64,000 bases of DNA from Candidatus Aminicenantes bacterium (GTDB taxonomy: Bacteria; Acidobacteriota; Aminicenantia; Aminicenantales; CALLJL01). Shown piece by piece: positions 8,665 to 34,101 of the stretch; position 1 is the stretch's first letter, and each line of letters starts with the position of its first letter. The notes under the pieces were generated by a model. That model did not search any database. It saw only the letters and a program-made list of their open reading frames with translations, and was not told where the DNA came from. The DNA is taken from positions 39,690 through 103,689 of the forward strand of contig JBBIRF010000003.1 of the NCBI GenBank assembly GCA_037441905.1, written 5' to 3'. The position numbers and the translations under genes were made by a program.

Positions 8665-9534
8665 ATGGAATATCTTTATTATCCCGGATGCAGCCTGGAG
8701 TCTTCCGCCAAGGCATACGACCAGGCAACGCGGTGGGTGTTCAAACGACTGGGACTTAACCTCCAGGAGTTGGAGGACTGGAATTGTTGTGGCGCCACGA
8801 TGTACATGTCCATCAAAGAAACCATTTCCTTGGCCTTTTCCGCCCGCAACCTCGCCTTGGCCGAGAAGGTTAACGGCGAAATCGTCGCGCCTTGTAGCTC
8901 ATGTTATACCATCCTTAACAAAACCAACCATGTTCTTCAGGAGAACTTTATCCTTCGGGCTAAGGTTAACCAGTCGCTGAAAAGGGCTGGTTTGGAATAC
9001 AGGGGGAAAGTCAGGGTTCGGCATCCGCTCGACGTCCTGGTGAACGACGTTGGCCTGGAGGCCATCAGGCAAAAAGCCGCTTTTTCCTTAGAAGGAATCC
9101 GCCTGGCGCCCTACTACGGCTGCCAGATTGTCCGGCCGGATGGCTTTTTCGACGACCGAGAAAACCCGATGACGATGGACCGGCTTTTTGCCTCGCTCGG
9201 AGCAACCATCGTTCCCTATCCAGTTAAGCTTCGTTGCTGCGGCGGCATGTTAATGACTACTTTTCCCGAGGTGGCTTTAAGGCTAAACCGGGAGATTATT
9301 GCCGCCGCCGTCGAGGCAAGGGCTGAGGCAATCGTTACCACCTGCCCTCTTTGCCAGATAAACCTTGACGCCTATCAGGATAAAATCAATCGCCTTTTCG
9401 GGACGGAATTCAAGATGCCCGTGTTATTTTTTACCCAGCTCCTGGCTCTGAGTTTGGGAGCTGACCGGTATGTGGCGGGGTGCAAAGAAAACATCGTTCC
9501 GGTACCGGAAAAATTGATTGGAGGGCAAAGATGA
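8665..9534 (+). CDS. hdrB: Heterodisulfide reductase subunit B-like (two CCG domains)
   Basis: NCCGATMY and CCGGMLM CCG-domain motifs; ATG at 8665 with GGAGGAG RBS (ORF-track start 8506 rejected). Confidence 0.8.
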   Translation: MEYLYYPGCSLESSAKAYDQATRWVFKRLGLNLQELEDWNCCGATMYMSIKETISLAFSARNLALAEKVNGEIVAPCSSCYTILNKTNHVLQENFILRAKVNQSLKRAGLEYRGKVRVRHPLDVLVNDVGLEAIRQKAAFSLEGIRLAPYYGCQIVRPDGFFDDRENPMTMDRLFASLGATIVPYPVKLRCCGGMLMTTFPEVALRLNREIIAAAVEARAEAIVTTCPLCQINLDAYQDKINRLFGTEFKMPVLFFTQLLALSLGADRYVAGCKENIVPVPEKLIGGQR

Positions 9535-10373
9535 GCGGCAACTCAGACCGACGCATAGGTGTTTATATCTGTCACTGCGGCTCCAACATCGCGGCCACCG
9601 TGGATGTTGTCGCCGTCAGGGATTTCGCTAGCAAGTTGCCTGAAGTGGTTATCGCCCGGGAGTATAAGTTCATGTGTTCTGACCCGGGCCAGGAAATGAT
9701 TCGCCAGGATATAAAAGAGCTGGGGCTTAACCGGGTCGTCGTGGCCAGCTGTTCGCCTTTGATGCACGAGCCGACTTTCCAAAAAACCTGCGAGAGCGCC
9801 GGGCTTAATCGGTATCTTTTCCAGATGGCCAACATCCGGGAACACTGCTCCTGGGTTCATAAGGACAGGCAAGCCGCCACCGAGAAGGCCAAGTACCTGG
9901 TGGCCGCGGCTGTTCGGCGAGTTTATTACCATGAGCCGCTTGAACCGATGCGAGTGAAGATTAACCCCGCCACCTTGATTGTCGGCGGCGGCGTGGCCGG
10001 GATTCAGGCTGCTTTGGAGATTTCGGAGGCTGGTCACGAGGTTTATCTCGTCGAAAAAGAACCCTCTATCGGCGGCCGGATGGCTGCCCTTGACAAAACC
10101 TTCCCGACTCTCGATTGTGCGGCTTGCATCCTGACTCCGAAGATGGTCAGCGTGGGGAGCCGGCCAAATATTCATCTCCTTAGCTACAGCGAGGTTGAAG
10201 AAGTTACTGGCTCCCTGGGCAAGTTCAAAGTCAAGATAAGACGCAAACCTCGGTATGTAAACGAGACTAAATGCACGGGTTGCGGGCTGTGCTATTCATC
10301 CTGCCCCGCGGTCAGAATTCCCACCCGCCGAGTGGTGAAGCTCGGCGACCGCGTCCTCAAAGAAATCGCCTGA
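9531..10373 (+). CDS. HdrA-like flavoprotein, N-terminal fragment only (Cys-cluster domain + FAD Rossmann + first ferredoxin CxxCxxCxxxCP), 280 aa
   Basis: GVYICHCGSNI...SCSP, LIVGGGVAGIQAALE...VYLVEKEPSIGGRMA, CTGCGLCYSSCP; ATGA overlap with hdrB stop; lacks CVGSRD/YCSRxCC half found in the downstream fusion. Confidence 0.7.
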   Translation: MSGNSDRRIGVYICHCGSNIAATVDVVAVRDFASKLPEVVIAREYKFMCSDPGQEMIRQDIKELGLNRVVVASCSPLMHEPTFQKTCESAGLNRYLFQMANIREHCSWVHKDRQAATEKAKYLVAAAVRRVYYHEPLEPMRVKINPATLIVGGGVAGIQAALEISEAGHEVYLVEKEPSIGGRMAALDKTFPTLDCAACILTPKMVSVGSRPNIHLLSYSEVEEVTGSLGKFKVKIRRKPRYVNETKCTGCGLCYSSCPAVRIPTRRVVKLGDRVLKEIA

Positions 10374-10410
10374 AGGCGCAGTAATGAGGAAAGAAGAAGG
10401 AGGCAAGAAG

Positions 10411-10920
10411 ATGGGAGACAAACTCGAGCTCGTCCAGAAAATCTTAGAAAAATGGCAGTTCCGGAAGGATTTCTTGATCGAAATTCTCCAGGACATCCAG
10501 GATGAGTTTCGCTATCTGCCTCATCACGCCCTGGCAGAGGTGGCCCGCTGGCTTGACCTCCCGCTGAACCAGGTTTATGAGGTGGCTACTTATTATAAGG
10601 CCTTCAGCCTCGAGCCCAAGGGAAAATTTCAAATAAGCATCTGTCAGGGGACGGCCTGCCATGTCCGGGGGGCGGCGACAGTTCGCGGTGCCTTCGAGCG
10701 AGAGCTGGGGATTAAACTCGGCGAAACCGACAAGAACCTGGAGTTCAGCCTGGAAGCGGTGCGTTGTTTGGGCTGCTGCGGGTTAGCGCCTGTTGTTACT
10801 GTAAACCAGGATATCTATGGGAAGATTGAGGCGAGCGAAGTACCCAAAATAATCGAGAAATACAGAAAAAGTAGCGGCCAGGTTAAAACCACGGCAACCC
10901 CCGCCAAAGGAGGCCGATGA
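10411..10920 (+). CDS. NuoE-like thioredoxin-fold [2Fe-2S] subunit
   Basis: CQGTACHVRG ... CLGCCGLAPV motifs; RBS GAAGGAGG before ATG 10411. Confidence 0.75.
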   Translation: MGDKLELVQKILEKWQFRKDFLIEILQDIQDEFRYLPHHALAEVARWLDLPLNQVYEVATYYKAFSLEPKGKFQISICQGTACHVRGAATVRGAFERELGIKLGETDKNLEFSLEAVRCLGCCGLAPVVTVNQDIYGKIEASEVPKIIEKYRKSSGQVKTTATPAKGGR

Positions 10921-12791
10921 TGAAAAAGCTGACGGTCGAAGACTTAAGCCGGATAAAGAAGAAGCGGCTCGAGGAGACGGCTCTGGGTGAAGCCGGGCCT
11001 TATCGAGCCCGAATCATCGTCCATCTCGGCACCTGCGGGTTAAGTGCCGGCGCCGGAGCTGTTCTGGAGGCTTTTGAAGCCCAGGTGGCCGCTCACCCTC
11101 AAGCCAAGGTTCATCTGCGCAAATGCGGCTGTGGCGGGTTCTGTGCCCGGGAGCCGATGGCCCAGGTTGAGGTTTTTGGGATAGAGCCGGTGATTTATAC
11201 CGACCTTAAGCCCAAGGATGCCAAACAGATTTTCGAAGAGCATGTGTTGAAAGGGAAGGTGGTCGAAGCTAAACGTCTACCCAAGGAGGAGCCTTTCTTT
11301 TCCCGCCAGCATTTCATCGTCCTCCGGAACCGAGGCCTGGTTGACCCGGAGAACATCGAGGACTACATCGCCCAGGATGGCTACACCGCCCTGGCCAAAG
11401 TATTGACCTCGATGTCTCCCGAGCAAGTAATCGCTGAAGTCAAAGCCTCGGGGTTGCGCGGCCGGGGCGGCGGAGGGTTCCCTACCGGCGTAAAGTGGGA
11501 GACATGCCGGCATGCGGGCGAGGAGAGAGGGGAGGAGCGATTTGTTATCTGCAATGCAGACGAAGGCGACCCCGGAGCTTACATGGACCGGAGCGTGATT
11601 GAATCCGACCCTCATGCGGTGATTGAAGGAATGATTATCGGCGCTTATGCTATCGGGGCCAAACAGGGCTATGTTTATATCCGCAAAGAGTACCCGATTG
11701 CTCTCGAGAAATTGAACCTGGCCTTAGACCAGGCGAGAGAATACGGTCTTCTTGGCGAGAAAATTCTCGGGACAGAATTTAGCTTTGATATCGAGGTCCA
11801 CCGGGGGGCGGGTGCTTTTGTTTGCGGCGAGTCAACGGCTTTGATGGCTTCGCTCGAGGGCCGAGCCGGCATTCCCCGCGCTAAATATATCCACACTGTG
11901 GAGTACGGCCTCTGGAATAAGCCGAGCTGCTTGAATAACGTCGAAACCTGGGCGAACGTCCCGGTGATAATAAACAAAGGAGCCTCATGGTTTACGCAGA
12001 TTGGGACAGGAGATGTAACCAATAACCCCTGGGGAGGGAGCAAGGGGACAAAAGTGTTTAGCTTGACGGGCAAAGTAAAGAACACTGGCCTGATCGAAGT
12101 GCCGATGGGGATTACCTTGCGGGAAATAATTTTTGACATCGGCGGCGGCATCCCCAACCAGAAGAAGTTCAAGACCGTCCAGACAGGAGGGCCGTCAGGC
12201 GGGTTCCTGCCCGAGAGCCTGCTCGACCTGCCGGTAGATTTTGACAGCTTGACAGAGGCCGGGTCGATGATGGGTTCGGGCGGGATGATTGTCGGCGACG
12301 AAGATACGTGCATGGTTGACATGGCCAAGTATTTCATCAATTTCCTGCTCGAGGAATCTTGCGGCAAATGTGTTCCCTGCCGGGAAGGGTTGCGCTCGAT
12401 GCATGCTATCCTCGAGCGGATTACCCATGGTCAGGGCAAAGAGAGTGACCTCGACGCTCTGATGGACCTTTCCAAGGCAATGATTCAATCTTCCCTCTGC
12501 GCCCTCGGCCAGAGTGCTCCCAACCCGGTTTTGACTTCCATTAAGTATTTCCGGGAAGAGTATGAAGCTCATATTCGGAACCACAAATGCCCGGCTGGAG
12601 TCTGTCCCGACCTTTACGAGATGACCATCATTCCCGAGCTATGCACCGGATGTATGGTCTGCGCTCGCTACTGCCCGACGAAAGCCATTGCGGGAGAGAA
12701 GCAAAAACCGCATCAAATTGACCGCAGCAAGTGTATCAAGTGCAATGTTTGCTATTCCCTCTGTAAGTTTAACGCCATCAAAAAAATTTAG
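10917..12791 (+). CDS. NuoF-like NADH-binding FMN/[4Fe-4S] subunit with N-terminal Trx-like Fdx domain and C-terminal 2x[4Fe-4S]
   Basis: GRGGGGFPTGVKWE FMN motif, ESCGKCVPCREG, C-terminal CTGCMVCARYCP / CIKCNVCYSLC. Confidence 0.8.
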   Translation: MMKKLTVEDLSRIKKKRLEETALGEAGPYRARIIVHLGTCGLSAGAGAVLEAFEAQVAAHPQAKVHLRKCGCGGFCAREPMAQVEVFGIEPVIYTDLKPKDAKQIFEEHVLKGKVVEAKRLPKEEPFFSRQHFIVLRNRGLVDPENIEDYIAQDGYTALAKVLTSMSPEQVIAEVKASGLRGRGGGGFPTGVKWETCRHAGEERGEERFVICNADEGDPGAYMDRSVIESDPHAVIEGMIIGAYAIGAKQGYVYIRKEYPIALEKLNLALDQAREYGLLGEKILGTEFSFDIEVHRGAGAFVCGESTALMASLEGRAGIPRAKYIHTVEYGLWNKPSCLNNVETWANVPVIINKGASWFTQIGTGDVTNNPWGGSKGTKVFSLTGKVKNTGLIEVPMGITLREIIFDIGGGIPNQKKFKTVQTGGPSGGFLPESLLDLPVDFDSLTEAGSMMGSGGMIVGDEDTCMVDMAKYFINFLLEESCGKCVPCREGLRSMHAILERITHGQGKESDLDALMDLSKAMIQSSLCALGQSAPNPVLTSIKYFREEYEAHIRNHKCPAGVCPDLYEMTIIPELCTGCMVCARYCPTKAIAGEKQKPHQIDRSKCIKCNVCYSLCKFNAIKKI

Positions 12792-12800
12792 GAGGCAGCC

Positions 12801-14576
12801 ATGGATGAGAAGAAAATCGTTACCCTCAAGATAGATGGTCATGAGGTGCAGGCGGAAAGAGGGACACCCATCATCAAACTGGCCTCGAAGCTTGGCATTT
12901 ATATTCCAACCCTTTGTCATAATGATTTCGTCGAGCCTTACGGAAGCTGCCGGGTTTGCTCGGTGGAGATGCGAAGAGGGAAGCGGAAAAGGCTGGTTAC
13001 TGCCTGTAATTACCCGGCCCAGCAGGGGGAGGAAATTTATACCGATACCGAGTGGGTGAGGGAAAACAGGCGGTTAATTCTTGAGCTGTTGCTGGCTCGT
13101 TGTCCGGAAGTGCCAGTCATTAAAGAAATGGCCGCCGCCTACGGAGTGACTGACACCCGGTTTGAAAAACTGAACTCTGATTGTATCAACTGCGGGCTAT
13201 GTGTCCGCGTATGTTCCGAGGTCGTCGGAGCCAATGCCATCGGGTGGGCAGGCCGGGGCGTCAACCGAGAAGTTACCACTCCTTTCGAGCTTAAACCCGA
13301 GGCTTGCATCGGCTGTGGCGCCTGTGCCGCGGTTTGTCCAACCGGACGAATCAGGGTTGAGCCTCTGTGGCAGACCAAAGAGGGTGAAGTTAGAGAATTT
13401 ACCCTCGGGCCGACAAGCGCCATTTATATTCCCACCTATCAGGCTGTTCCGAAGGTTCCGGTTATCGACCGCAATGCCTGTATCCACTTCAAGACAGGCG
13501 GATGTCAGGTGTGTGTGCGGGTTTGCGAACCGAAAGCGATTGACCATAACCAGGAGGAGAGGCTGGAAGAGGTCGAGGTTGGCCAGGTCTTAATCACCAC
13601 CGGTTACGACATCTTCGACCCCCGGGAGATGAAACAGTACGGCTACGGAATTTTAGACGACGTCTACAGCAGCCTGGAAATGGAATATCTGTTTAATTCG
13701 AGCGGCCCGACTTACGGCCGGGTTTTGATGAAAAACGGCCAGGAGCCGCGGTCAATCGGGATTATTCATTGTGTCGGGTCAAGAGATGTCAACCATCATC
13801 CCTACTGTTCCCGCATTTGCTGCATGTATGCCCTGAAATTTGCTCATCTGATTAAAGATAGGTCGACGGCCGATGTCTATCAGTTTTACATCGACATGAG
13901 AGCCTTCGGTAAAGGCTACGAAGAATTTTTCACCCGGATTCTGGACGAAGGAGTCAACGTCATCCGGGGACGGGTAGCGGAGGTAGTAAAGGCCGGGCCG
14001 GAAAAAGCGGCTGAAGGCAAGCTCTTGATTCGTTGCGAGGATACGCTCGTGCATCAGTTCCGAGAAATTCCCGTAGATATGGTAATCCTTTGCAGCGCGG
14101 TTGAACCAAGAAAAGACGCCGACCGGGTGCAGCGGCTTTTCACCCTCAGCCGGAGTCCAGACGGGTTCTTCCTGGAGAAACATCCGAAGCTCGACCCGAC
14201 GGCGACACCCACCGACGGCGTTTACATTGCCGGCTGTTGCCAGGGGCCGAAGGATATTCCTGATACCGTAGCTCAGGCGAGTTCAGCCGCCGCCCGGATT
14301 TTGGCTACGATTGCCAAAGGCGTGGTTGAAGTCGCCCCCATTGTCGCCCATATTGACCCCGAGGTTTGTGCCGGCTGCCGCCTTTGCCTTAACCTCTGCC
14401 CGTACGGGGCCATAGAATATCTTGAATCAGAAGGCGTCAGCCGCGTTAATGAAGCCTTGTGCAAAGGATGTGGCACCTGTGTTTCTGCCTGTCCGAGCGG
14501 GGCTTCTACCCAGCGGCATTTTCGTGACGAGCAGATTTTCGCCGAGATTGAAGGCATTCTTTTCCAGCCCCGTTGA
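12801..14576 (+). CDS. Fusion: NuoG-like N-terminus (2Fe-2S + 4Fe-4S) + HdrA C-terminal half (FAD domain part 2 + C-terminal ferredoxin)
   Basis: CHNDF..CRVCSVE 2Fe-2S, CINCGLCVRVC, CIGCGACAAVCP, then HdrA motifs HCVGSRD...YCSRICCMYALKFAHLIKD and C-terminal CAGCRLCLNLCP / CKGCGTCVSACP. Confidence 0.7.
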   Translation: MDEKKIVTLKIDGHEVQAERGTPIIKLASKLGIYIPTLCHNDFVEPYGSCRVCSVEMRRGKRKRLVTACNYPAQQGEEIYTDTEWVRENRRLILELLLARCPEVPVIKEMAAAYGVTDTRFEKLNSDCINCGLCVRVCSEVVGANAIGWAGRGVNREVTTPFELKPEACIGCGACAAVCPTGRIRVEPLWQTKEGEVREFTLGPTSAIYIPTYQAVPKVPVIDRNACIHFKTGGCQVCVRVCEPKAIDHNQEERLEEVEVGQVLITTGYDIFDPREMKQYGYGILDDVYSSLEMEYLFNSSGPTYGRVLMKNGQEPRSIGIIHCVGSRDVNHHPYCSRICCMYALKFAHLIKDRSTADVYQFYIDMRAFGKGYEEFFTRILDEGVNVIRGRVAEVVKAGPEKAAEGKLLIRCEDTLVHQFREIPVDMVILCSAVEPRKDADRVQRLFTLSRSPDGFFLEKHPKLDPTATPTDGVYIAGCCQGPKDIPDTVAQASSAAARILATIAKGVVEVAPIVAHIDPEVCAGCRLCLNLCPYGAIEYLESEGVSRVNEALCKGCGTCVSACPSGASTQRHFRDEQIFAEIEGILFQPR

Positions 14577-14708: not shown

Positions 14709-15062
14709 CTATTCAGGCTGGAGCTCTGCTTCCAGGCTCACCAGGGTCAGGTCTGTTCCGTCGAGGATGGCTACGTCGGTAGACTGACAGACTGGACAAA
14801 CAAGCGGCCAATCTTCTCGGGTTGCCTCTTGGCCGCAACGCCGGCAGCGGAACTTCACCGGCACGACTTCCAGCACAAGGGTAGCCTCGGAGGCGAAAGT
14901 ACCCTTTTTGTAGACGTCAAAGGCTGTCTGCAAGCATTCCGGAACGACGCCGGCAAAAAGACCGCAGCGGAGTTTGATTTGAGTTATCCGGCTAATTTTC
15001 TCTTCGGCCACCTTGGCTTCGAGGATATCAAAAAGGCTGGCAACCAAGGAAAGTTCATGCAC
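14709..15062 (-). CDS. hypA: [NiFe] hydrogenase nickel-insertion protein HypA
   Basis: MHELSL... N-terminus and CRRCG...CPVC zinc-finger. Confidence 0.85.
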   Translation of the reverse strand: MHELSLVASLFDILEAKVAEEKISRITQIKLRCGLFAGVVPECLQTAFDVYKKGTFASEATLVLEVVPVKFRCRRCGQEATREDWPLVCPVCQSTDVAILDGTDLTLVSLEAELQPE

Positions 15063-15741
15063 GGGTTTTTCCTAACTGCTGACGGCGTTCTAAGAGAAAC
15101 CGGCTAAACTCTTCGATTCCCTCGCCCGTCACCGCGGAGGTACAGAAGATTTTCAGCCCCGGGTTTATCTCCAGCGCCTCCTTTTTCACTTTCCCCAGGT
15201 CGTAGGGAACGTAACCGAGCAAATCAAGCTTGGTGACCACAAGACACTGGGCAGTAAGGAACGCCTTGGGATATTTCTTTGGTTTGTCTTCGCCTTCGGG
15301 GACCGAAAGGAGGACGCAGCGGAGGCTCTCTCCCAGGTCGTAAGAAGCAGGGCAGACGAGGTTGCCAACATTTTCGATAAAAAGAAACTCGGTCTCGGGA
15401 GGGATTTCTTTTACCAGACGTCCGACCATCCTGGCCTCTAAGTGGCAGGCGCCGCCCGTCGTTATTTGCCACGCGGGAACTCCCTTGGCTCTGATTCTGG
15501 CAGCATCCCGGTCAGTTTCGATATCTCCCTCGATGACCGCCAGCCGATGGCGAGGGAAAAGGAGGTCGATGATTTTTTCCAGAAGAGTCGTTTTCCCCGA
15601 CCCGGGGGAGCTCATAAAATTAACCGTCAAAATGTTTTGTTCTTCGAAAAAACGACGAATTTCAGCCGCAATTTTCTTGTTTGACCCGAGAAGGTCCTCA
15701 AGAACGTCAATTTCTTTTCGACTCATGAGCGATAGGGACAA
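15055..15741 (-). CDS. hypB: [NiFe] hydrogenase accessory GTPase HypB
   Basis: GSGKTTLL P-loop, CxxC(H) region GGACHLE, 8-nt overlap with hypA. Confidence 0.85.
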   Translation of the reverse strand: MSLSLMSRKEIDVLEDLLGSNKKIAAEIRRFFEEQNILTVNFMSSPGSGKTTLLEKIIDLLFPRHRLAVIEGDIETDRDAARIRAKGVPAWQITTGGACHLEARMVGRLVKEIPPETEFLFIENVGNLVCPASYDLGESLRCVLLSVPEGEDKPKKYPKAFLTAQCLVVTKLDLLGYVPYDLGKVKKEALEINPGLKIFCTSAVTGEGIEEFSRFLLERRQQLGKTRA

Positions 15742-16204
15742 GTCCCAAAATGGATTTTATTCGGGCTAAAATTTCCGGGATTTTGGCTTTCATCTCCGGC
15801 GATAAACCTTCGCCGAGATGGTAGATGTTTTTCGCCTCCACGGCAATGATCATCAGTTCCCTGGGAACAGGAAGGCCAGCTGCCCGGCCGATGGCTAATA
15901 CCTGGGGGAAAGAGAGATAATGAGGCGAAGGTCCGGGGATAGCCCTTAAGTCTTTCTCTTCGAGAACCCGGACAGCACCCGTTTTCGGGTTTTCGAGTTT
16001 GATGGTGTCGATGATGACCAACCGGTCATACCCCAGGACGAGGTCAAGGAGGGCCAATCCGGAAGAGGTTGAGGCTAAAAAATCAATCGAGCCTGAGGAA
16101 ACTTCCTGGCCGGACATTTCTGCTTGCAAACAGTTGACGAGATGGAGGCCGACGCCGTCGTCTCCGAAAAGGTCGTTTCCGAGGCCAAGAACCAGGGTCC
16201 TCAT
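15707..16204 (-). CDS. Hydrogenase maturation endopeptidase (HybD/HycI/FrhD family)
   Basis: MRTLVLGLGNDLFGDDGVG N-terminus, Asp (VIIDTIK) and His (PHYLSF) positions conserved. Confidence 0.8.
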   Translation of the reverse strand: MRTLVLGLGNDLFGDDGVGLHLVNCLQAEMSGQEVSSGSIDFLASTSSGLALLDLVLGYDRLVIIDTIKLENPKTGAVRVLEEKDLRAIPGPSPHYLSFPQVLAIGRAAGLPVPRELMIIAVEAKNIYHLGEGLSPEMKAKIPEILARIKSILGLVPIAHESKRN

Positions 16205-18573: not shown

Positions 18574-18904
18574 GGCCAGCTCCCTACACTCAGGGATAGA
18601 GCAATTAACGTGCCAATTTAGCACCCGCCGCAGGGGCAGTAGCCATGCTAAATTATTGAAAATAAAGGATTTATTTTGGAGGAAAGACTGGCCGGAAGTG
18701 ATTCCTGGGAATAAATTATACCCTGAGGTATTTCTCCCCATCCTTATTCCAGAATTGCCACCTTATCGAAAGAAGAATAGAATCTTATCAAAATAAGTAT
18801 TTTCCGACAATAAAAAAAGCTTGCTTTTTTTCATTTTTTCGTATTAGGAATAGAAAGCAGGCAGACGTCCAGTGGCCTGGGGATTGATGCAGGATTAAAA
18901 GGCA

Positions 18905-18995
18905 GGCAGAGCAGCCTCCGGGCTGCTCTGTGGTCTTTTTGACCACTGGACGGGTGGGGCCAACCCCGAAAAGCGGGGCTGGCCCCATCTTTTTA
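18905..18995. terminator. Cluster of three stem-loops (CAGAGCAGCC-tccg-GGCTGCTCTG; TGGTC-ttttt-GACCA; GGGGCCAACCCCG-aaaa-GCGGGGCTGGCCCC followed by ATCTTTTTATTTC)
   Basis: Perfect/near-perfect GC-rich inverted repeats read directly; directly downstream of minus-strand hydrogenase operon stop (18993); T-tract on plus side, weaker U-tract on minus side. Confidence 0.5.
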
Positions 18996-19373
18996 TTTCA
19001 GGACATCGCTGATTTTAGCGATGGCCTCAAGCACTGGTTCGGAAATGTCCTTAGATGTCAAGCTTTGTGGTTGAATCCCGAGAAGGTATGATTTTTTCAC
19101 GTGACCGGGGCTGAGCAGGCTGAGGAACGAAGGCAGAAGCCGGTGGCTGAGGGAGGAACTCCAGAGGGCCTGAGCGAGCGGCATTAAGGTAATCCTGCCC
19201 GGGGCGGCACCGAAGTTAAGCGCGTCAATCAGGATGAAAGGCCGATTCTGGTTAGTTTCCCAGAAAACTTCGTCCTCCTCGATTTCCGACTCAAGGTAGG
19301 CGTTTTGATAACCGCTGGCTTTCAGGGTTTCAGCCACCACCAGGCCGGCCCCGTCGTCGCCCTTATCAACGCA
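18993..19373 (-). CDS. Hydrogenase maturation endopeptidase-like segment in the same frame as the hydrogenase large subunit, separated from it only by TGA (19374-19376); first canonical start (GTG 19340) would delete the conserved N-terminal strand and Ni-binding acidic motif
   Basis: ...KPLRPIIVGI-TGA-CVDKGDDGAGLVVAETLK aligns to MRTLVLGLGNDLFGDDGVGLHLV of the standalone protease; downstream Asp (ILIDAL) and His (SHRLLPSF) conserved. Confidence 0.5.
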   Translation of the reverse strand, partial: CVDKGDDGAGLVVAETLKASGYQNAYLESEIEEDEVFWETNQNRPFILIDALNFGAAPGRITLMPLAQALWSSSLSHRLLPSFLSLLSPGHVKKSYLLGIQPQSLTSKDISEPVLEAIAKISDVLK

Positions 19374-20732
19374 TCAGATGCCGACGATTATGGGGCGAAG
19401 CGGCTTCAACTCGGCTAACTTCTGTTGCCAATCAACTTCTTCTGTCGTCCGGACCTCGACAAGATGGGCTGAACAGCTGATACAGGGGTCAAACGCCCGG
19501 ACGACCATTTCCAGCCGGTCGCGGATTTGGTCTTCCTTTCCCTCGTTCAGGAGTTTTTGGGCCGCCAGGAAGCAGTAGCGCTCGATTTCCTCCGCATTCT
19601 GGGCCGTGGGCGTGATGATGTCGGCAAAGACGATGCGGCCGTCTTTGATTTCATAATGGTGGATGAGTAGACCTCGCGGCGCCTCGACCAGGCCAGTTCC
19701 TTTGCCCTCCCGGCTCGAATAGGCCGTAATCCCGGGGTCTTCAGGGTATTTAAGAATTTCGTCAACGAGAGCGGGAATTTTTTCAAAACAATACATAATC
19801 TCGATAGCTTGGGCGGCATTCTGGAAAAGCGGGTTTCTCTTCCACCTTTCGTTATAGAAACGGCGGAGAATTTTCTTGGCTTCGCCGGACAGCCTTTCAC
19901 CCAGCAGGTTCACCCTTGCCTGGGCGCCAACCGTATAGCTTTTTCCCTGCTACCGGCTCCGCTTGGCCGTCGAATGAGGAACGAAAAACTCGTTGGTCAG
20001 ACGACGGTAATCATCACGATGGATTTTTTCGCCCGTCGAAACCAGAATCTCATCTCCCCAGAGGCCATACTTTCCGTCGCCGGGTTCACAACAAGCGAAG
20101 ATAGCCTCGTCTTCCGGAATATCAGGATAGGGTAGGCTGCAGAAAAGCTCGGTGGTTTTATGGACAAACGGCATGAATTGAATAGCCCTGGCTTTAATCA
20201 GCAAGAGCTCTTCCCTGGTGGGGTAGCGGCCGAAACCGCCGATGACGGGGTTTTCCCCGTGGATGAACCGGCCGCTCAAGACCTTCATGATGTTATTCCC
20301 GAACTGCTTCATTTCCAGGGCAATCTTGACCTCGAAGGGAAACCGGGTTGCCATGGCGATGGCGTTCGGGAACCCGACAAAATCGGGCAGAGCAAGGTAG
20401 TAGAGGTGGAGAGAATGACTTTCGATATATTCACCGAGATGCATCAGTTCGCGAAGCAGGGTAACCTTTGGCGGCACCTTGACACCGAGGGCGTTTTCCA
20501 TCGCCCTGATAACGGCGTTTTTATGAGAAAGAGTGCAAATGGCGCAGACCCGGGGAGTTATGCTGACGTCTTCCTCCGGTGTTTTACCCACGGCTAATCT
20601 TTCGACGAGTCTCGGGCCTTCATTTATCAGAAACTTAACTTCGGTGACGACTTTCCCGTCTACAGTTACGGTTACTCCACCGTTACCTTCAACTCGAGCC
20701 AGATGGTCGATAGTTATCTTTTTCATCGTCAA
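19374..20732 (-). pseudogene. Group 3b (sulfhydrogenase alpha-like) [NiFe]-hydrogenase large subunit, single frame interrupted by in-frame TAG at 19950-19952 (pseudogene, sequencing error or recoded)
   Basis: N-terminal RVCAICTLSH (RxCGxCxxxH variant) and C-terminal DPCISCSAH Ni-Fe ligand motifs; 260-aa ORF and 179-aa ORF are in the same frame, conserved ...HSTAKRSR*QGKSYTVGAQAR.. spans the stop. Confidence 0.65.
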
Positions 20733-21511
20733 CGCCTCCCTGTTTTCAATTGGTGAAAGAATTCAGTAATCGTTGTCCCGGCATAAATCGACATGCGTTG
20801 TTTGATGCTTTCTAAATCAAACCCTTTGTCGAGGAGAAGCTGAAATTCAGCCACCCGGTTAGCCTCTTCCGTCGGCCCCCAGCACCCAACACAAGCCAGG
20901 TTGTGCGAGGGACAGACTGCTCCGCAGCCAGCTTTAGTCAGCGGCCCGAGACAGGGGATGTTCTTGTTGAGCAAGCAATCGTTCTCATGCCATTTACATT
21001 CGAGACACACCGGAAAGCGATAAAGCTCTGGCGGATGGCCGGCCAGGAGCCGGGTAAAAGTTGCCAGGAACTGTTCCTGGCCAATCGGGCAGCCAGGCAA
21101 ATAATAATCAACTTTGATAAAAGCATCGATGGGCTGAGAAGGGATAGGATGAACGTTTGTATGTTTGAGGTCCTGATAGACCTGACGAAATTCCTTCTCC
21201 CATGTGCCCGCGGCCGTAAGGGCTGCCTGGATTCCTCCTTCACAAGCACAATTACCAATAGCAATGACCACGCCTGCCCGTTCGCGGATGCTCAATAGTT
21301 CGGTTTTTTCCTCCTCGGTAGTGACCGACCCCTCGACTAAAGCCACGTCTACAGGACCGTGACTGTTGTCACTCTTGGCCATCAGAAAAGCTTCAATATC
21401 AGCGGCCTGGAAAATATTAACCAGCTCGGATTCACAATCGAGGATGAGGAGGGCATCGCCCGCACAGCCGGTCAGCTCAAAGACGCCGATTTTCACGCGG
21501 GTTTTTTCCAT
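20729..21511 (-). CDS. Group 3 [NiFe]-hydrogenase small subunit (delta-like)
   Basis: ELTGCAGD, GNCACEGG, YYLPGCP, CLGPLTKAGCGAVCPSHNLACVGCWGP cluster motifs. Confidence 0.8.
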   Translation of the reverse strand: MEKTRVKIGVFELTGCAGDALLILDCESELVNIFQAADIEAFLMAKSDNSHGPVDVALVEGSVTTEEEKTELLSIRERAGVVIAIGNCACEGGIQAALTAAGTWEKEFRQVYQDLKHTNVHPIPSQPIDAFIKVDYYLPGCPIGQEQFLATFTRLLAGHPPELYRFPVCLECKWHENDCLLNKNIPCLGPLTKAGCGAVCPSHNLACVGCWGPTEEANRVAEFQLLLDKGFDLESIKQRMSIYAGTTITEFFHQLKTGRR

Positions 21512-21524
21512 CGGGGTTTCCTCC

Positions 21525-22382
21525 TTAAATTAACTCTCTCATGTGGAGCACATCCCAGTAAGTAAAAACAGGACCGTCCAAACAGGTATAAATATAATCA
21601 ATCGCGCAGTGGCCGCATTTGCCGACACCGCATTTCATCCTTCTTTCGAGAGTCATTAAAATCTGATGTTTCGGAATGTTAAGCTTGATTAACTCTCTGA
21701 TGACGAACTTGTACATCACTGGCGGGCCGCAAACGAGAGCAAAGGTGTTCGCCGGGTCGACATTTTTTAACTTGGGAAAGAGAGTCGTGACGACACCGAT
21801 GTTTTCGGTCCAGGTTCCGGTATCATCAGCGTCAACGGTCAGATGGCATTCCAGGTCTCCCCGCTTCTTTAAATCAAAATATTCCTCCCTGAAAATCATC
21901 TCGGCCGGTCTTTTCGCGCCGTAGAGCACGCTCACCCGGCCAAACTGGTCCCGGTTATCCAGGCAGTAGAGAAGCACAGACCGGAGGGGTGCGGCCCCAA
22001 GGCCGCCGACGACGATGATGATATCTTTTCCGGTCATAGCTTCAACGGGAAATCCATTGCCGTAGGGTCCCCTCAGACCGATTAAAGAATTTTCCTTAAG
22101 ACGGAACAGGGCGTTCGTGACCGTCCCCACTCGCCGAATGCAAAACTCGAGTAAACCCGGCCTGGAAGGAGGGGAAGAAATGGAAAAAGGCGCTTCCCCT
22201 GCTCCGAGGACGGAAAGCATGGCAAACTGTCCAGCCCGGTAACGAAAGCTGAGCGCTTTTTCCATATCGGTCAGGCGGACCTGGAAGAATTTCACGTCAG
22301 CCGTCAAATTATAAGCCCTGACAATCCGGGCTGGTTCGGGTAGGAGAGGGTTGGGGAGAGTGTTTTTTAATTCCGTGTTCAT
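21525..22382 (-). CDS. Sulfhydrogenase gamma-like FAD/NAD(P)-binding subunit (HydG/AsrB-like) with C-terminal [2Fe-2S] CxxxxCxxC
   Basis: RAGQFAMLSV...PFSISS FAD motif, VGGLGAAPL NAD(P) motif, CGVGKCGHC. Confidence 0.7.
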   Translation of the reverse strand: MNTELKNTLPNPLLPEPARIVRAYNLTADVKFFQVRLTDMEKALSFRYRAGQFAMLSVLGAGEAPFSISSPPSRPGLLEFCIRRVGTVTNALFRLKENSLIGLRGPYGNGFPVEAMTGKDIIIVVGGLGAAPLRSVLLYCLDNRDQFGRVSVLYGAKRPAEMIFREEYFDLKKRGDLECHLTVDADDTGTWTENIGVVTTLFPKLKNVDPANTFALVCGPPVMYKFVIRELIKLNIPKHQILMTLERRMKCGVGKCGHCAIDYIYTCLDGPVFTYWDVLHMRELI

Positions 22383-23443
22383 GGAGTCACCTCAGAAGAA
22401 AGCCGAGCCCAAAAGGCGTTGACGGGCTTGCCTTCCAGGGCATCGGCCACTGATTTTACGTTAATTCCCACCGGGCAGGTAACCAGGCAGCGGCCGCAGC
22501 CGACACAGCTTGGTTTTCCGTATTTCGAGCCATACGCCTGGAGTTTATGAGTATACCAGAGCTTGAGCCGCGAGGATTTTTTCTCCCGGAAGTTCTCGCC
22601 GCCGGCCACCTGAGAATATTCGGGCAAGGTGCAAGAATCCCATTCCCGGACGCGCAACCCCGGCTTCCCGGCCAGCCGGATTTCGTCGCGGACGTTATAA
22701 CAATTGCAGGTGGGACAGACCATCGAGCACGACCCGCAGGCTAAACAGGATGTGCCTAATTTTTCCCAGAGCGAATCACGGTACTTGAGCTCCATCAGGT
22801 CAGGCATAAACACATAGTTTATCGAGGTCTTAAATGCCCTGGCCCTGTTCTCTCGCCAGTCGATGTACTTCTGGATGTCGGCTGTCGCCAGAGTCTCCTC
22901 GAAAAACTCGGGGACAAGGCGGACGAGGTCGTCTCCCTGGCTGGAACCTATCCAGGCGAGGTAATTGTCTCCCAGGTCGGTGAAAAAGAGGTCATAGCCT
23001 TCTTCGATGATGTCGGTATGGGTAGACTGGCAGAGGCAATTTTCGTCAGGCCAGCAGGAAAGACCGAGAATAAGGGTCCGCTGCCTGGCCTTAAGATAAT
23101 AAGAATCAGGGAAAACCTGGCTAAAAATGCGGTCGAGAATGAGAAGACCGTGAATGTCGCAAGGATGAATCCCGAACAGAATCCGGTCCTTGACCCAGGA
23201 AAAATCCTCTTCATAGCCGCGGGAGGTGAATTGGAACATGGTGAAACTCGGGGGGACGAAAAGCTTCTTGGGCGGCAGAAGAGTCCGGGTCGCCTTGAGG
23301 TCGATTTTGGGAATCTCGGACGACGCTACCGGGGCAAAGCTTGTTTTGTTTTCCCTGGTCAAAGGAGCCCACAGCTCCGCTCCGTCGGAAATGGCTCCGA
23401 GGAAGGGATACAGATTTTCCTTCTTAAGCTTTAGGATTCTCAT
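22379..23443 (-). CDS. Sulfhydrogenase beta-like subunit (HydB/AsrA-like, multiple [4Fe-4S])
   Basis: CLACGSCSMVCPTCNC and CVGCGRCLVTCP motifs; operon position upstream of gamma, small, large subunits. Confidence 0.7.
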   Translation of the reverse strand: MRILKLKKENLYPFLGAISDGAELWAPLTRENKTSFAPVASSEIPKIDLKATRTLLPPKKLFVPPSFTMFQFTSRGYEEDFSWVKDRILFGIHPCDIHGLLILDRIFSQVFPDSYYLKARQRTLILGLSCWPDENCLCQSTHTDIIEEGYDLFFTDLGDNYLAWIGSSQGDDLVRLVPEFFEETLATADIQKYIDWRENRARAFKTSINYVFMPDLMELKYRDSLWEKLGTSCLACGSCSMVCPTCNCYNVRDEIRLAGKPGLRVREWDSCTLPEYSQVAGGENFREKKSSRLKLWYTHKLQAYGSKYGKPSCVGCGRCLVTCPVGINVKSVADALEGKPVNAFWARLSSEVTP

Positions 23444-27132: not shown

Positions 27133-28596
27133 TTAATCTCTTTTTATCTGTTCCACCAACTCGCGACGGCTGTTGTAAATGTTGATGATTAGAGGCATGT
27201 CACCCGGAAGGGCATGAGTGCCGCATGCATGGCAGGGGTCATACGGACGAAAAGCCATCTCCGCTAAATTGAGTAGTCCGTCGGAAACCTTGCCTTCCTT
27301 GATAAAAGCCTTGGCTGCTTTTTCGATCGACATCGTAATGGCGGCTGAATTATTCATCGTGGCGACAATCAGGTTGGCTTCAGTCACAATGCCTTTTTCG
27401 TCGGTTTTATAATGGTGGAATAACGTTCCCCGGGGAGCTTCGACTACCCCCACTCCCTCGGTGGGCGTTTCTGTCGGCACCCGCCGGATGTCCGGGCTGG
27501 TAATTTCTTTGTCTTCCAGCAGGGCTACCATAGCCTCAGCTGCCTGGAGGGCTTCGATCAGACGAGCCCAGTGGAATGCCAGGGTGTTATGAGCCGGTTT
27601 TCCTCCGAGGACCTGGTACATCCTTTCGTATTCCTGTTGCGCTAAGGGAGTGGCCATGCCGTCAGCCGCGTTTAAGCGGGCGAGAGGCGCCACTCGGTAA
27701 ATACTGGTTTCTCTTCCCTCTACGAAGCCCTTCCAGCCAATTTTTTTCAGGTAAGGAAACTTAATGTAAGTCCAGGGCTCGACGTGTTCAGCCACGTGTT
27801 CGAGATAATCAGCGGCCTTAAACTTGGCGAACTCCTTGCCTTCGGGGTCGACCACCCGGATCAGGCCGTCATAAAAATTAACCCTGTTCTTCTCATCAAC
27901 CAGCCCCATGTAATAAGTGACGAGTTTATAAGCGTCGCCGACTACCAGGTCGACGTACTCTTTGTTTTTCAAGACGACGTCGTCGAAGATTTTCAGGGCA
28001 AACTTGGCGAATTCAACCGCATACCGGGCTGTCTCTAAGAATTTTAAGCGATGTTCCTCATCCAGCCCTTTGGAAACGCCGCCCGGAAGTCCGCAGACAG
28101 GGTGAATAACCTTGCCGCCGAGGTAGTTGATGATATCGCGACATTCCCGGCGGACCCTGATTACCTGGCCGCCGATTTCCAGCCCTACTTTACCCAGGAC
28201 ACCCAGAATATTTCTCTCCGCCGCCGGCGCCTGGGGGCCGACGACAAAATCAGGACCGCCCAGGAAAAAGAAATGAAGCGAATGGTCCTCCATCATAAAG
28301 GTGTTGTAAATTAACTCTCTTATCTTGCGGGCGGTTGGGGTTGGCTCGACATGAAAAACGGCGTCAACGCATTTTGTCGAGGCCATATGATGGGCGGTGG
28401 GGCAGACACCGCAGATGCGAGGGGTAATCCGGGGCATCTCTTCCACCGGACGGCCGACCGCGAACTGCTCAAAACCGCGCAGCTCCGGCACTTGAAGAAA
28501 AGCCCTTTCGACATCCCCGGCATCATTGAGGAAAATCTCTATCTTTCCGTGACCTTCAAGCCTGGTTATCGGGTCGATGGTTATTCGCTGACTCAT
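27133..28596 (-). CDS. mvhA: Mvh/Vhu-type (group 3c) [NiFe]-hydrogenase large subunit
   Basis: PRICGVCPTAHH and DPCHACGTHA motifs, 25-aa C-terminal extension. Confidence 0.85.
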   Translation of the reverse strand: MSQRITIDPITRLEGHGKIEIFLNDAGDVERAFLQVPELRGFEQFAVGRPVEEMPRITPRICGVCPTAHHMASTKCVDAVFHVEPTPTARKIRELIYNTFMMEDHSLHFFFLGGPDFVVGPQAPAAERNILGVLGKVGLEIGGQVIRVRRECRDIINYLGGKVIHPVCGLPGGVSKGLDEEHRLKFLETARYAVEFAKFALKIFDDVVLKNKEYVDLVVGDAYKLVTYYMGLVDEKNRVNFYDGLIRVVDPEGKEFAKFKAADYLEHVAEHVEPWTYIKFPYLKKIGWKGFVEGRETSIYRVAPLARLNAADGMATPLAQQEYERMYQVLGGKPAHNTLAFHWARLIEALQAAEAMVALLEDKEITSPDIRRVPTETPTEGVGVVEAPRGTLFHHYKTDEKGIVTEANLIVATMNNSAAITMSIEKAAKAFIKEGKVSDGLLNLAEMAFRPYDPCHACGTHALPGDMPLIINIYNSRRELVEQIKRD

Positions 28597-29567
28597 TTTA
28601 TTGCCTCCAGTTTCCTGCGGCCAAGAATTGACTTGGGCAGGCTAAAACGATAGAAGGTGCCGGCGGGGTCGGCGATAGTCTGGACAACCTTTTCTATTTC
28701 CTTTTCGTCCTTAAAATCGATAAGCGAAGCTAAGGCGGAAAGGAATTTGGCGCCCTGGTCGTAGACCTGGTCGGTTGGCCCGAAGCAACCCCGGCAGGGC
28801 ATGTTGGCCGTGATGCATCTTTCTTCGCAACCAGTTCTCGTAGCCGGTCCCATGCAGATAACCCCCTGGGCCAAAAAGCACTTTTCCGGGTCAAGAAGGA
28901 CTTCCCACGGCCGCTTAAACTCTTTAATCGTTAATTTCTCCGGCTTGGTCTTATTCCGGTCGCAATCGTCGCACAGAGATTTGTTGGGAGAAAGCACAGC
29001 TCCCTTCGGAGGGAGCTTACCCTCTAAAATAGCCCCGACAGCGTTGAGGATGAGGTGGCGGGGAGGAGCACAGCCGGGGAGATAATAGTCAACATCGATA
29101 ACCTGGTCGAGGGCCCTCACGGTGTCATAAAAAGCGGGCAGGGTTAATTCTTTGCCCTCGACAACGACTTTTTCCTGAGGAACAACGCCATCAGGGTTAA
29201 CCGTGGACGGGGTGGTGAAATAGGCCCGGCGGAAAATGGCCTCTTTGTTCCAGAAATTCGCCAGCCCGGGTATTCCGCCAAGATGCGAGCAGCTTCCGAA
29301 GGCAACGACGAGCTGCGATTTCCGGCGGAGCAGATGAACCATTTCTTCCTGTTCCGATAACCTGACCGACCCGTTAATAAAGCTAACCGCGATCGAGCCG
29401 TCAGCCATGGCCTCGACATCTTTTTTCTTAAAATCGAGGGCTACAGGCCAGAAAACGATGTCAACCGCTTCGACTACCTTAAGGATGTCTTCGGCCAGGT
29501 CGACAACCGCTTCCTCGCAGCCGCCGCAAGATGCACACCAGTAAAAAGCAACTTTGGGCTTACTCAT
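28593..29567 (-). CDS. mvhG: Mvh-type [NiFe]-hydrogenase small subunit
   Basis: [12 protein letters not shown]-terminus, multiple Cys cluster motifs ([21 protein letters not shown]). Confidence 0.8.
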
Positions 29568-29994
29568 GGGAACCTCCGTTGAACTTGAAGTTTAGCGGCC
29601 CGAGGCGCCGGACCTGTTCGGTAAACTCATTAACCACCTGCTGAAACCTGGCCCCTTCTGAGGCCGAAACCCATTCGAGCCTGAACCTTTCTTTTTCGAT
29701 GCCCAGCTGTTCGAGCAACCGCGAAAGAAGTTTATAACGGCGCAAGGCTTTATAATTACCTTCTTGATAATGGCAATCTCCAGGATGGCAGCCGGAAATC
29801 AGCACGCCGTCAGCCCCCTCGCGGAATGCCTTGAGGACAAACTGGGGGTCAACCCGGCCGCTGCACATAACCCGGATGATCCTTATGTTAGGGGCATAAG
29901 TCATCCTGGCCGTGCCTGCGAGGTCGGCCCCGGTATAAGAACACCAATTACAAAGGAACCCCACTAAGCGGGGTTCAAACCCAGCTTGACTCAT
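29560..29994 (-). CDS. mvhD: MvhD-like [2Fe-2S] electron-transfer subunit
   Basis: [18 protein letters not shown]...MCSGRVD...[11 protein letters not shown] motif pattern typical of MvhD. Confidence 0.8.
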
Positions 29995-30090: not shown

Positions 30091-31848
30091 TTATACAAGT
30101 AATAACCCTTCGATTTCGGCCATGATTTGCCGGTCGCGAAAGTGTTTCTGCTGAGCCGCACCCGACGGACAGGCGGCGACGCATGTCCCGCATCCTTTAC
30201 ACAGGGCGTCGTTTATGACGGATATTTCCTTTTCTCGGTCAAATGTTATGGCCGTAAATGGACAGAGGCCGACACAAATCTGACAGCCGGAGCAAAGGTT
30301 TTCGTCTATCTCCGCGGTTACTGGCTCAAGGCTGAAACTGGCTTTATCAGCCAGGGCTAAAGCTTCCGCCGCCGCCCCGCCTGCCTGAGCTACCGTATCG
30401 GGAATATCCCGGGGAGCCTGGCAACATCCCGCGAGAAAGATGCCGTCGGAGAAGGTCGAGACCGGAGCTAATTTCGGGTGTCTTTCTAAGAAGAAAGTAT
30501 CCTGACTGCAGGAAATGTTGAAGGTTTTGGCCAGCTGGTTATGGTCGACTGACGGCTCAAGCCCTGTTGCCAGAATCACCATATCGACGGGAATTCGCCG
30601 GACGACGCCCAGGAGCGTATCTTCCACCCGGATGATAAGCTTCCCTTCCTCTTCCTTGGTCACGGCCAGGTCGGTAATTTCCGAAACCCGACCGCGGATA
30701 AATTTTGTTCCTTCCTCGAGCAGACGATGATAAAACTCTTCATAGCCCTTACCGAAACAACGCATGTCGATATAAAAGTCATAAATGTCAGCTTCGGTTT
30801 TTTCTTTAATCAAATGGGCGAACTTGAGGGAGTACATGCAGCAGACCCGGGAGCAATATTCGTTGTAATTTTCATCTCTTGAGCCGACACAGTGAACTAT
30901 CCCGACTGATTTCGGTTCTTCTCCGCTAGCCAGCAAGATTTTGCCGCCGGTAGGACCAGAAGCATTCACCAGATGCTCAAACTCCAGGGCTGTAATCACG
31001 TTCGGCAACCTGCCGTAGCCGTAGGCCGGGATGCGGCGGGCGTCAAACGGCTTAAAACCGGTGGCCAGGATTATCGACCCGACTTCGACCTCCACCTCCT
31101 CTTCTTTCATTTCATGGTTAACGGCCTGTCGGTCGCAAACCTTGACGCAGAGCTGGCATTTGCCCGTCTTAAAATGGATGCAGGCGGATTCATCGATAAA
31201 AGGAACCATCGGAACAGCTTGGCGGATGGGAACCCGGATGGCGGTCGATGGCCCAAGATATAGCTCGGAATGGATAACCTGGCGGCCGTACTTATCTTCA
31301 TAGGTGATTGCTCCTGTCGGGCAGAAATGGGCGCAGGCGGTACAGCCGATGCAAGCTTCTGAAGGTTCGCCAAAAGGAGGCATTACTTTCCTCTCTGTAC
31401 CGCGGTCGATAAAACTAATCGCACAGGCGCCCACCACTTGTTCGCAAGCGCGGACGCACAGACCGCAGAGGATGCATTTTTCATTTGGGTCCTTTATCGG
31501 GAAACGCGGCTTATCAATGCCCATTTCCCTGGCAAGCCTCTGGACAGGTTCAGCGGCCGGCGCCCGGGCTAGAAGCATTTCCACGTTAAGCCGCCGGCTT
31601 CTGAGGACCCGCGGGGAGGCGGTTTCAACCTCCATCCCGTCTTGAACCTTATTGTTACATGACGTAATAAGGTCTTTCCGGCCCCGCACGCTTACTTCAA
31701 CCAAACAGACGCGGCAGGCGGCATAAGGCTCGATTAATGGATGATAGCAAAGAGTCGGGATGGAAATATCTAATTTCTTGGCCGCCTGGAGGATGGTTGT
31801 CCCCTCTTCTACCTGAATTTTCTTGCCATCAATCGTAACGGTAACCAT
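30091..31848 (-). CDS. Fusion: NuoG-like N-terminus + HdrA C-terminal half (paralog of 12801-14576)
   Basis: CYHPLIEPYAACRVC 2Fe-2S, CILCGLCVRAC, CIGCTACAHFCP, HCVGSRD...YCSRVCCMYSLKFAHLIKE, C-terminal CSGCQICVGLCP / CKGCGTCVAACP. Confidence 0.7.
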   Translation of the reverse strand: MVTVTIDGKKIQVEEGTTILQAAKKLDISIPTLCYHPLIEPYAACRVCLVEVSVRGRKDLITSCNNKVQDGMEVETASPRVLRSRRLNVEMLLARAPAAEPVQRLAREMGIDKPRFPIKDPNEKCILCGLCVRACEQVVGACAISFIDRGTERKVMPPFGEPSEACIGCTACAHFCPTGAITYEDKYGRQVIHSELYLGPSTAIRVPIRQAVPMVPFIDESACIHFKTGKCQLCVKVCDRQAVNHEMKEEEVEVEVGSIILATGFKPFDARRIPAYGYGRLPNVITALEFEHLVNASGPTGGKILLASGEEPKSVGIVHCVGSRDENYNEYCSRVCCMYSLKFAHLIKEKTEADIYDFYIDMRCFGKGYEEFYHRLLEEGTKFIRGRVSEITDLAVTKEEEGKLIIRVEDTLLGVVRRIPVDMVILATGLEPSVDHNQLAKTFNISCSQDTFFLERHPKLAPVSTFSDGIFLAGCCQAPRDIPDTVAQAGGAAAEALALADKASFSLEPVTAEIDENLCSGCQICVGLCPFTAITFDREKEISVINDALCKGCGTCVAACPSGAAQQKHFRDRQIMAEIEGLLLV

Positions 31849-33686: not shown

Positions 33687-33699
33687 TTTTCACTCCTTC

Positions 33700-34089: not shown

Positions 34090-34101
34090 GGCTTCCTCTC
34101 C

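Follow-up and report, generated by a model that had tools for sequence, protein, structure and literature searches.

A family of group 3b [NiFe] hydrogenase large subunits fused to a maturation endopeptidase, and a probable pseudogene copy with two nonsense substitutions

The interrupted hydrogenase frame

In a 64,000-nt stretch of DNA from Candidatus Aminicenantes bacterium (contig JBBIRF010000003.1, positions 39,690 to 103,689; here called the window) we analyzed a gene for the large subunit of a group 3b [NiFe] hydrogenase. The gene, the other parts of its operon and the other hydrogenase and protease genes described here lie on the minus strand. A single frame (20726->18993) runs from the large subunit through a 29-residue tail and an in-frame TGA into an endopeptidase of the HycI/HybD type. 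An earlier note, made from the sequence alone, had described this arrangement, and our translation of 20732->18990 agrees with it, including the length of the tail between the His of DPCISCSAH and the TGA at 19374-19376. A second in-frame stop, a TAG at 19950-19952, had been overlooked. Relatives encode the same protein without interruption, which points to a family of true substrate-protease fusions, of which the window copy is most likely a recently inactivated member.

The two stops divide the frame into three pieces of 258, 191 and 126 codons. The first (19953..20726) starts with the ATG at 20726, an upstream TTG at 20732 being a possible alternative, and encodes the N-terminal 258 residues of the large subunit (PF00374, E=1.4e-31; 9nez_D, E=3.4e-96), with the L1 motif RVCAICTLSH at 20523-20552. 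It ends at the TAG, codon 259, midway through the large subunit (...HSTAKRSR*QGKSYTVGAQAR...). The C-terminal part of the large subunit (19464..19949) extends as far as the L2 motif DPCISCSAH (19464-19490), and the predicted cleavage site follows the last residue of this motif, His421 (19464-19466). From the scissile bond a linker, LVEVRTTEEVDWQQKLAELKPLR (19395..19463), containing a Trp that is invariant in the family, leads to the protease domain. Strand beta1 of that domain (PIIVGI, 19377..19394) lies 5′ of the TGA, codon 451, the rest of the HycI/HybD-type (MEROPS A31) domain lies 3′ of it (18996..19373), and the frame closes with a TAA at 18993-18995. In translation, the junction reads ...DPCISCSAH LVEVRTTEEVDWQQKLAELKPLRPIIVGI * CVDKGDDGAGLVVAETLK.... 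A G+C-rich hairpin read from the sequence directly 3′ of the TAA, GGGGCCAGCCCCGCTTTTCGGGGTTGGCCCC (18950..18992), is probably a terminator, and a scan for terminator-like structures gave a second hairpin at 18907-18930.

That the first protease strand is encoded before the stop, as the earlier note had proposed, is borne out by the alignment with the stand-alone protease encoded at 15707-16204 (MRTLVLGLGNDLFGDDGVG). PIIVGI-*-CVDKGDDGAG aligns with LVLGLGNDLFGDDGVG of that protein, PIIVGI itself pairing with LVLGLG, and the match to the NCBIfam hycI profile runs across the TGA. The first ATG, GTG or TTG 3′ of the TGA is the GTG at 19340, and a start there would indeed lose both beta1 and the acidic GDDG motif. 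We also considered a restart or translational coupling across this junction and rejected it: the frame that begins in the overlapping TGATG goes no further than ATG-CGT-TGA, and the next in-frame start is again the GTG at 19340.

The first 421 residues are those of a group 3b large subunit, matching the alpha subunit of Pyrococcus furiosus sulfhydrogenase I (9nez_D) with the E-value given above and 5yxy with E=2.1e-95. An AlphaFold2 (AF2) model of an intact relative (P0001) superimposes on this subunit with a template modeling (TM) score of 0.96 and a root-mean-square deviation of 1.8 Å. Both nickel-ligand motifs of the group, RxCxxC and DPCxxCxxH, are present in the window gene. Within L1, the Arg and one Cys are invariant in an alignment of 120 sequences and the other Cys is nearly so; within L2, the D, P, C, C and H are invariant in all 124 fused proteins of the family alignment. 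The uninterrupted open reading frame (ORF) expected of a working group 3b gene is not found in the window, where the TAG at 19950-19952 breaks it. The gene follows three others in an operon of the hydBGDA type. The first encodes a HydB-like subunit with a Fer4_22 4Fe-4S dicluster domain (22379..23443; PF17179, E=2.6e-32), the second a HydG-like subunit with FAD/NAD(P)-binding domains and an Fe-S domain (21525..22382; PF00970, PF00175, PF10418), and the third a HydD-like small subunit of 260 amino acids (20729..21511; PF01058).

The protease domain is divergent. TIGR00072 matches the window domain with 36.0 bits (E=6.2e-9) against a curated cut-off of 47.45, and PF01750 with 15.1 bits against a cut-off of 23; many intact relatives have PF01750 on record. 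We modeled the last 126 residues (18996-19373) with AF2, using the window sequence together with the family alignment, and obtained a predicted local distance difference test (pLDDT) score of 86.7. The ten best matches of this model in the PDB were all HycI/HybD endopeptidases (2i8l, 5zby, 2e85, 5ija, 1cfz and similar; E 9e-6 to 4e-3), and nothing else fell below E=0.4. Residues D457/D458 (19353-19358), D501 (19224-19226) and H528 (19143-19145) are invariant in 124/124 fused proteins. By alignment they are putative counterparts of the metal ligands of HybD, Glu16, Asp62 and His93, an acidic residue after beta1, an Asp after beta3 and a His, respectively. The domain also carries a GIQP motif (19068-19079).

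The region between the two domains is also conserved. The P1 His is invariant in the fused proteins, P1′ is Met or Leu in 120 of the 124 and the next residue is A or V. Between the His and the second Gly of the protease GxG motif the distance is 29–30 residues in every one of them. In the full-length model of P0001, residues 421-432 around the scissile bond have a pLDDT below 50, which suggests a segment that is presumably flexible; they are followed by a helix (435-445) and by strand beta1 (448-451).

Uninterrupted fusion proteins in relatives

To find homologs we used the read-through translation with an X at both stops as query. This gave 5043 matches. The best 120 are 576–608 amino acids long, cover 96–100% of the query and span both domains, and for many of them the database entry lists PF00374 (large subunit) as well as PF01750 (HycI protease). 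Their named sources are mostly Aminicenantes. Naming of the fusion proteins is not consistent among databases, which use “large subunit”, “sulfhydrogenase subunit alpha” and “hydrogenase maturation protease”. The read-through translation is 89–96% identical over its full length to uninterrupted proteins of 577–579 amino acids, and is therefore not a chance resemblance. In the family alignment, the column of the TAG holds Tyr in 116 and Phe in 7 of the 124 sequences, and Tyr is also found here in the P. furiosus enzyme. The column of the TGA holds Gly in all 124; it is the second Gly of the GxG motif.

We then surveyed genomes, taking one per species and checking the gene for stops with tblastn. 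The gene was present in 80 genomes, mostly of Aminicenantes, and 79 of these align over it without an in-frame stop. The residue at the TGA position is Gly in 77/77 and that at the TAG position Tyr or Phe in 80/80. The alignment is interrupted in two of the 80 copies only: one (L069) has a single in-frame stop at codon 239, a position different from those in the window, and in the other (L074) a scaffold gap, 10 N long, falls within the linker. Neither window stop recurs at its position in the 80 other genomes, and in none of them is the fusion replaced by a separate protease gene with its own start. A naturally split ortholog was looked for among 1.84 billion proteins and rejected, as the short matches are contig-edge or mis-started fragments, with the scaffold gap in L074 accounting for the split copy there.

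Four loci (L001–L004), two of them from NCBI metagenome-assembled genomes (MAGs) of Aminicenantales, are syntenic with the window at 84% nucleotide identity. They have in common with it the gene order hydB-hydG-hydD-[fusion]-two response regulators-histidine kinase-hycI-hypB-hypA. Upstream of this block lies an Mvh-type hydrogenase, and their fusion gene encodes 577 or 579 amino acids. The HydB-like protein has 92% amino acid identity to its counterpart at the same position in L001 and L003, and the HydG-like protein 97.5% to that in L003.

The comparison indicates that the normal state of the gene is a true substrate-protease fusion, because relatives encode the uninterrupted protein. The family thus defined consists of a group 3b (sulfhydrogenase-type, HydA) large subunit fused to what by sequence is its own maturation endopeptidase, and is found mostly in Aminicenantes; the protease would take the place of the usual short C-terminal extension. 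The earlier note had suggested comparing the gene organization in relatives, and what we found there is the fusion, without a separate protease gene having its own start. It had also reasoned that a functional protease would require either read-through of the TGA or a fused polypeptide. The fused form is what essentially all relatives encode, and the read-through part of the proposal (selenocysteine, suppression, programmed read-through) did not hold.

The titles of some genomes bearing the fusion are unexpected. About half of those behind loci L006–L085 are titled “uncultured Eubacteriales bacterium” (third-party co-assembly MAGs), while Bathyarchaeia (L009), Desulfaltia (L014) and Clostridiales (L010) each occur as the title of one genome. 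The fused genes in L006–L085 are 56–80% identical to the window gene and resemble those of named Aminicenantes. The odd titles, or the binning behind them, look unreliable in the light of these sequences.

Origin of the two stop codons

L005, a contig of 4.5 kb that comes from another sample, shares 97.1% identity with the window over 4359 bp and is therefore regarded as conspecific. Its gene is an uninterrupted frame of 577 codons, with TAC at the TAG site and GGA at the TGA site. The more distant L001 and L003 also have TAC and GGA. Each window stop is thus one base away from the ancestral sense codon: TAC->TAG at 19950-19952, affecting a conserved Tyr, and GGA->TGA at 19374-19376, affecting the invariant Gly of the GxG motif. 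Because the relatives and the conspecific carry GGA and TAC at the two sites, the TGA is best described as a mutation, a single-base nonsense change, and not as a recoding signal. Reads with a sense codon at the TGA site had been named beforehand as the outcome that would establish a true fusion; such a codon, GGA, is found in the relatives L005, L001 and L003 rather than in reads of the window genome.

One way to rescue a functional product from the window copy would be programmed recoding, in which selenocysteine insertion, a suppressor tRNA or leaky read-through carries translation past the TGA, and likewise past the TAG, so that some full-length fusion is made. Both stops are in frame and the sequence downstream is well preserved, as this explanation would have it. 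The TGA moreover replaces a Gly, and reassignment of TGA to Gly is known in other bacterial lineages (genetic code 25). However, homologs have Gly and Tyr at the two positions and not Cys, the conspecific has ordinary sense codons at both sites, two different stop codons would need two mechanisms, and the stops are not found at these positions in any of the 80 other genomes. TGA is also the most frequent genuine terminator in the window, ending 32 of the 54 ORFs of at least 150 amino acids (TAG ends 3); hydD, for example, ends in an ordinary TGA at 260 amino acids, the same length as in L001, L003 and L005. We found no Rfam match to a selenocysteine insertion sequence (SECIS) or to tRNA-Sec, either at gathering thresholds over the window or at E<=10 over 18900-20100. 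The only tRNAs in the window are those for Lys, Glu and Val (Rfam, ARAGORN), with no suppressor tRNA among them. The fold of the 67 nt of RNA 3′ of each stop is no better than that of shuffled sequence (z=+0.16 for the TGA, -1.1 for the TAG). On account of the stop usage, the Gly and Tyr columns, the lack of SECIS and tRNA-Sec matches and the ordinary folds, selenocysteine, code reassignment and programmed read-through are all unsupported; we consider recoding very improbable and already largely refuted. Two specific forms of it were rejected individually. A selenoprotein gene does not fit a UGA that aligns with Gly in 124/124 proteins and 77/77 genomes and not with Cys or selenocysteine. A reassigned code such as code 25 does not fit the use of TGA as terminator, the agreement of gene ends with those of relatives, or internal stops in only one of 19 syntenic genes.

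It is equally improbable that the gene works in pieces, with three products of 258, 179 and 115 amino acids translated separately and assembling into an active hydrogenase and a truncated protease. GTG codons do follow each stop, at 19913 after the TAG and at 19340 after the TGA, and split large subunits exist elsewhere, as in VhuA/VhuU of Methanococcus voltae. A restart at 19913 would nevertheless lose 12 residues, among them G, Y, V, G, A, A and R in invariant columns, and one at 19340 would lose beta1 together with the invariant DD ligand motif. No relative has such an arrangement, and the short look-alike proteins in databases are fragments.

These considerations leave inactivation of the gene and error in its sequence as the explanations to be weighed. 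We favor the former: a gene of the fusion family that has acquired two nonsense substitutions and is most likely a recently inactivated pseudogene, to which we assign a probability of about 0.7. Degradation of the locus had been raised in the earlier note as an alternative, and it fits the window copy with its two nonsense codons. Among the 19 genes syntenic with L003, internal stops occur in one only, the fusion gene. With changes polarized using L001 and L003 as outgroups, the window lineage shows 15 non-synonymous and 13 synonymous changes in the fusion gene, against 6 and 43 in eight neighboring genes pooled (Fisher p=1.6e-4), which suggests relaxed constraint on the window gene. Given 13 synonymous changes, two nonsense changes are what would be expected under neutrality (~2).

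The main rival, clearly less probable, is that the two stops are sequencing, assembly or consensus artifacts of a metagenome-assembled contig and that the gene is intact in the organism, like that of the conspecific. Several observations speak for it or count against a pseudogene. The gene otherwise looks selected: it has no indels, its 21 other amino acid differences from the conspecific all fall in variable columns, and its 13 missense changes are about one third of the neutral expectation (~41). The ratio of non-synonymous to synonymous changes (N:S) in the fusion gene is also raised on the conspecific lineage (7:12), and the contrast between window and conspecific is not significant (p=0.37). 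The rest of the hydrogenase operon is intact in the window, with almost no non-synonymous change in the neighboring subunit genes. In a collection of ~15 billion proteins, the interrupted fragments (258, 179 and 115 amino acids) come from one NCBI contig only, which is 131,042 bp long and evidently the contig to which the window belongs. Metagenome contigs scanned with patterns spanning either stop gave no match, nor did a contig look-up for the 115-residue fragment, and the stops are thus without independent confirmation. The TGA also lies in an odd cluster of five substitutions within 15 nt, which could mark a locally poor consensus. What tells against an artifact is that two independent errors, each creating a stop, would have to have occurred within 580 bp of an otherwise clean contig, while none of the 18 other syntenic genes has an internal stop. 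Early stops in the tails of HypA and HycI on the same contig recur in a contig from an independent sample (L086), so that the assembly does report real variants. Furthermore, the raised N:S on the window lineage fits a real relaxation of constraint.

The cluster just mentioned lies at and just 3′ of the TGA (19361-19379), where GGAAGCCTGGATAAC in L005, L001 and L003 has become TGATGCGTTGATAAG in the window. All five substitutions are specific to the window, and together they create a perfect palindrome of 11 nt, GCATCTGATGC. A search of the window and of the 86 loci fetched gave no donor copy for them. The cluster may have arisen in one complex mutational event, or it may reflect a local problem of the consensus.

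Taken together, we conclude that the TGA is very probably not a site of selenocysteine insertion, of a new code or of programmed read-through, but one of two nonsense mutations in a copy that is probably dead and that should be annotated as a pseudogene.

Neighboring genes, proposed maturation and known systems

The stand-alone maturation endopeptidase gene, hycI (15707..16204; TIGR00072, E=3.6e-29), adjoins hypB and hypA and is found at the same position in L001, L003 and L086. The window also encodes a second hydrogenase, of the Mvh type (group 3c; 27133-29994), which consists of MvhD/FlpD (29560-29994), a small subunit (28593-29567) and a large subunit (27133-28596) with an ordinary extension of 26 amino acids after DPCHACGTH. 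An HdrA-like gene (30091-31848, minus strand) lies beside it. We infer that the stand-alone protease probably serves this hydrogenase.

In the window, hypA (14709-15062) ends at a TAG and hycI at a TGA, at positions where relatives of 84% identity have Glu and Arg codons. Similarity continues beyond the window stops, and the genes of the relatives run 17 and 3 codons further, respectively. As the same early stops are found in the conspecific contig L086 from another sample, they are real C-terminal truncations at the level of the species. Other potentially broken genes were looked for in the window, and same-frame neighbors (10917/12801, 34102/33700, 35844/35109 and 7928/8437) turned out to be separate normal genes. 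Two paralogous sets of NuoE-like, NuoF-like and HdrA-like genes with 52–56% protein identity are located at 9480-14576 (plus strand) and 31860-34557 (minus strand), the second with a small thioredoxin-like [2Fe-2S] ORF (33700-34101) between its NuoE-like and NuoF-like genes. Beside the hydrogenase/Hdr-like cluster, 4735-7635 (minus strand) encodes a large NAD-specific glutamate dehydrogenase of 966 amino acids (PF05088, PF23152, PF00208).

Hydrogenase endopeptidases cut after the His three residues beyond Cys-4, and do so only after nickel insertion, the nickel serving as recognition template; removal of the C-terminal extension then closes the active site (PMC6769069). By analogy, the fusion precursor would receive Fe(CN)2CO and then Ni, and the A31 protease domain, tethered to it and equipped with an Asp/Asp/His site, would recognize the Ni-loaded active site and cut after His421 of DPCxxCxxH. 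This would yield a large subunit of ~47 kDa and a linker-plus-protease fragment of ~17 kDa, and the new C-terminus would close the active site. By inference from the conserved cleavage site and the presumably flexible segment around it, an intact fusion would most likely undergo self-cleavage behind His421 after nickel insertion. For the wider proposal, that the fusion is a self-processing precursor with a dedicated endopeptidase of its own as extension, which works a single time and probably in cis, we see even odds. It weighs against this proposal that we found no experimental demonstration of self-cleavage by such a fusion in the literature searched. An account of such a mode of maturation was not found there either.

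The function served by the C-terminal extension and the way in which the protease recognizes the nickel-loaded precursor are described as unresolved (PMC6769069), and a stable complex of substrate and protease has reportedly been described only recently (PMC5299533). The analysis exposes a large conserved family, represented in at least 80 species-level genomes, in which one covalent chain contains both the catalytic subunit and the protease that would mature it. Because it occurs naturally and its linker has a fixed length, such a fusion gives direct access to both questions, through tests of cis versus trans cleavage and structures of uncleavable or dead variants. If the fusion is a self-processing precursor, it is a natural, stoichiometric and tethered complex of large subunit and protease, and the window copy would be a natural knock-out in one strain. 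Automated annotation is affected as well, since different sources call the fusion proteins either “large subunit” or “maturation protease”.

Each of the two domains is of a well-known family, and the fusion is visible in databases and apparently undescribed in the literature. A search of full-text literature, outside of which most subscription journals lie, gave no account of large subunit and endopeptidase being naturally fused; only artificial fusions, e.g. two-hybrid constructs, were found. With respect to the TGA, a close known case is that of the [NiFeSe] hydrogenases (Desulfovibrio vulgaris Hildenborough, Desulfomicrobium baculatum), whose large subunit genes likewise have an in-frame TGA near the 3′ end. 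There it encodes selenocysteine at the Ni-ligand Cys of DPUxxCxxH and depends on a SECIS. In contrast, the window motif DPCISCSAH has Cys, and the TGA, which stands in a Gly position, comes 30 codons downstream of it, with no SECIS found.

The stand-alone endopeptidases (HycI, HybD, HyaD, HoxW; MEROPS A31; PF01750, TIGR00072) have the same fold as the model of the fused domain and share with it the N-terminal motif beta1-GxG-x4-DD. Their expected substrate is also the same, the precursor of a large subunit, with cleavage behind the His of DPCxxCxxH (PMC6769069). Unlike them, the fused protease forms the C-terminal extension of its own substrate, at the end of a linker of fixed length (~23 amino acids), is divergent in sequence and would act once, on the substrate to which it is tethered. 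The four-gene order hydB-hydG-hydD-hydA and its domain content are those of the group 3b enzymes, such as P. furiosus sulfhydrogenase I (HydBGDA) and Hyh of Thermococcus kodakarensis. The alpha subunit of the P. furiosus enzyme is 40% identical to the large subunit of the fusion, with the Cys motifs conserved. The archaeal large subunits are 428 amino acids long, end a few residues after the His and have a separate protease, whereas the Aminicenantes-type protein continues for ~156 further residues, which include the protease.

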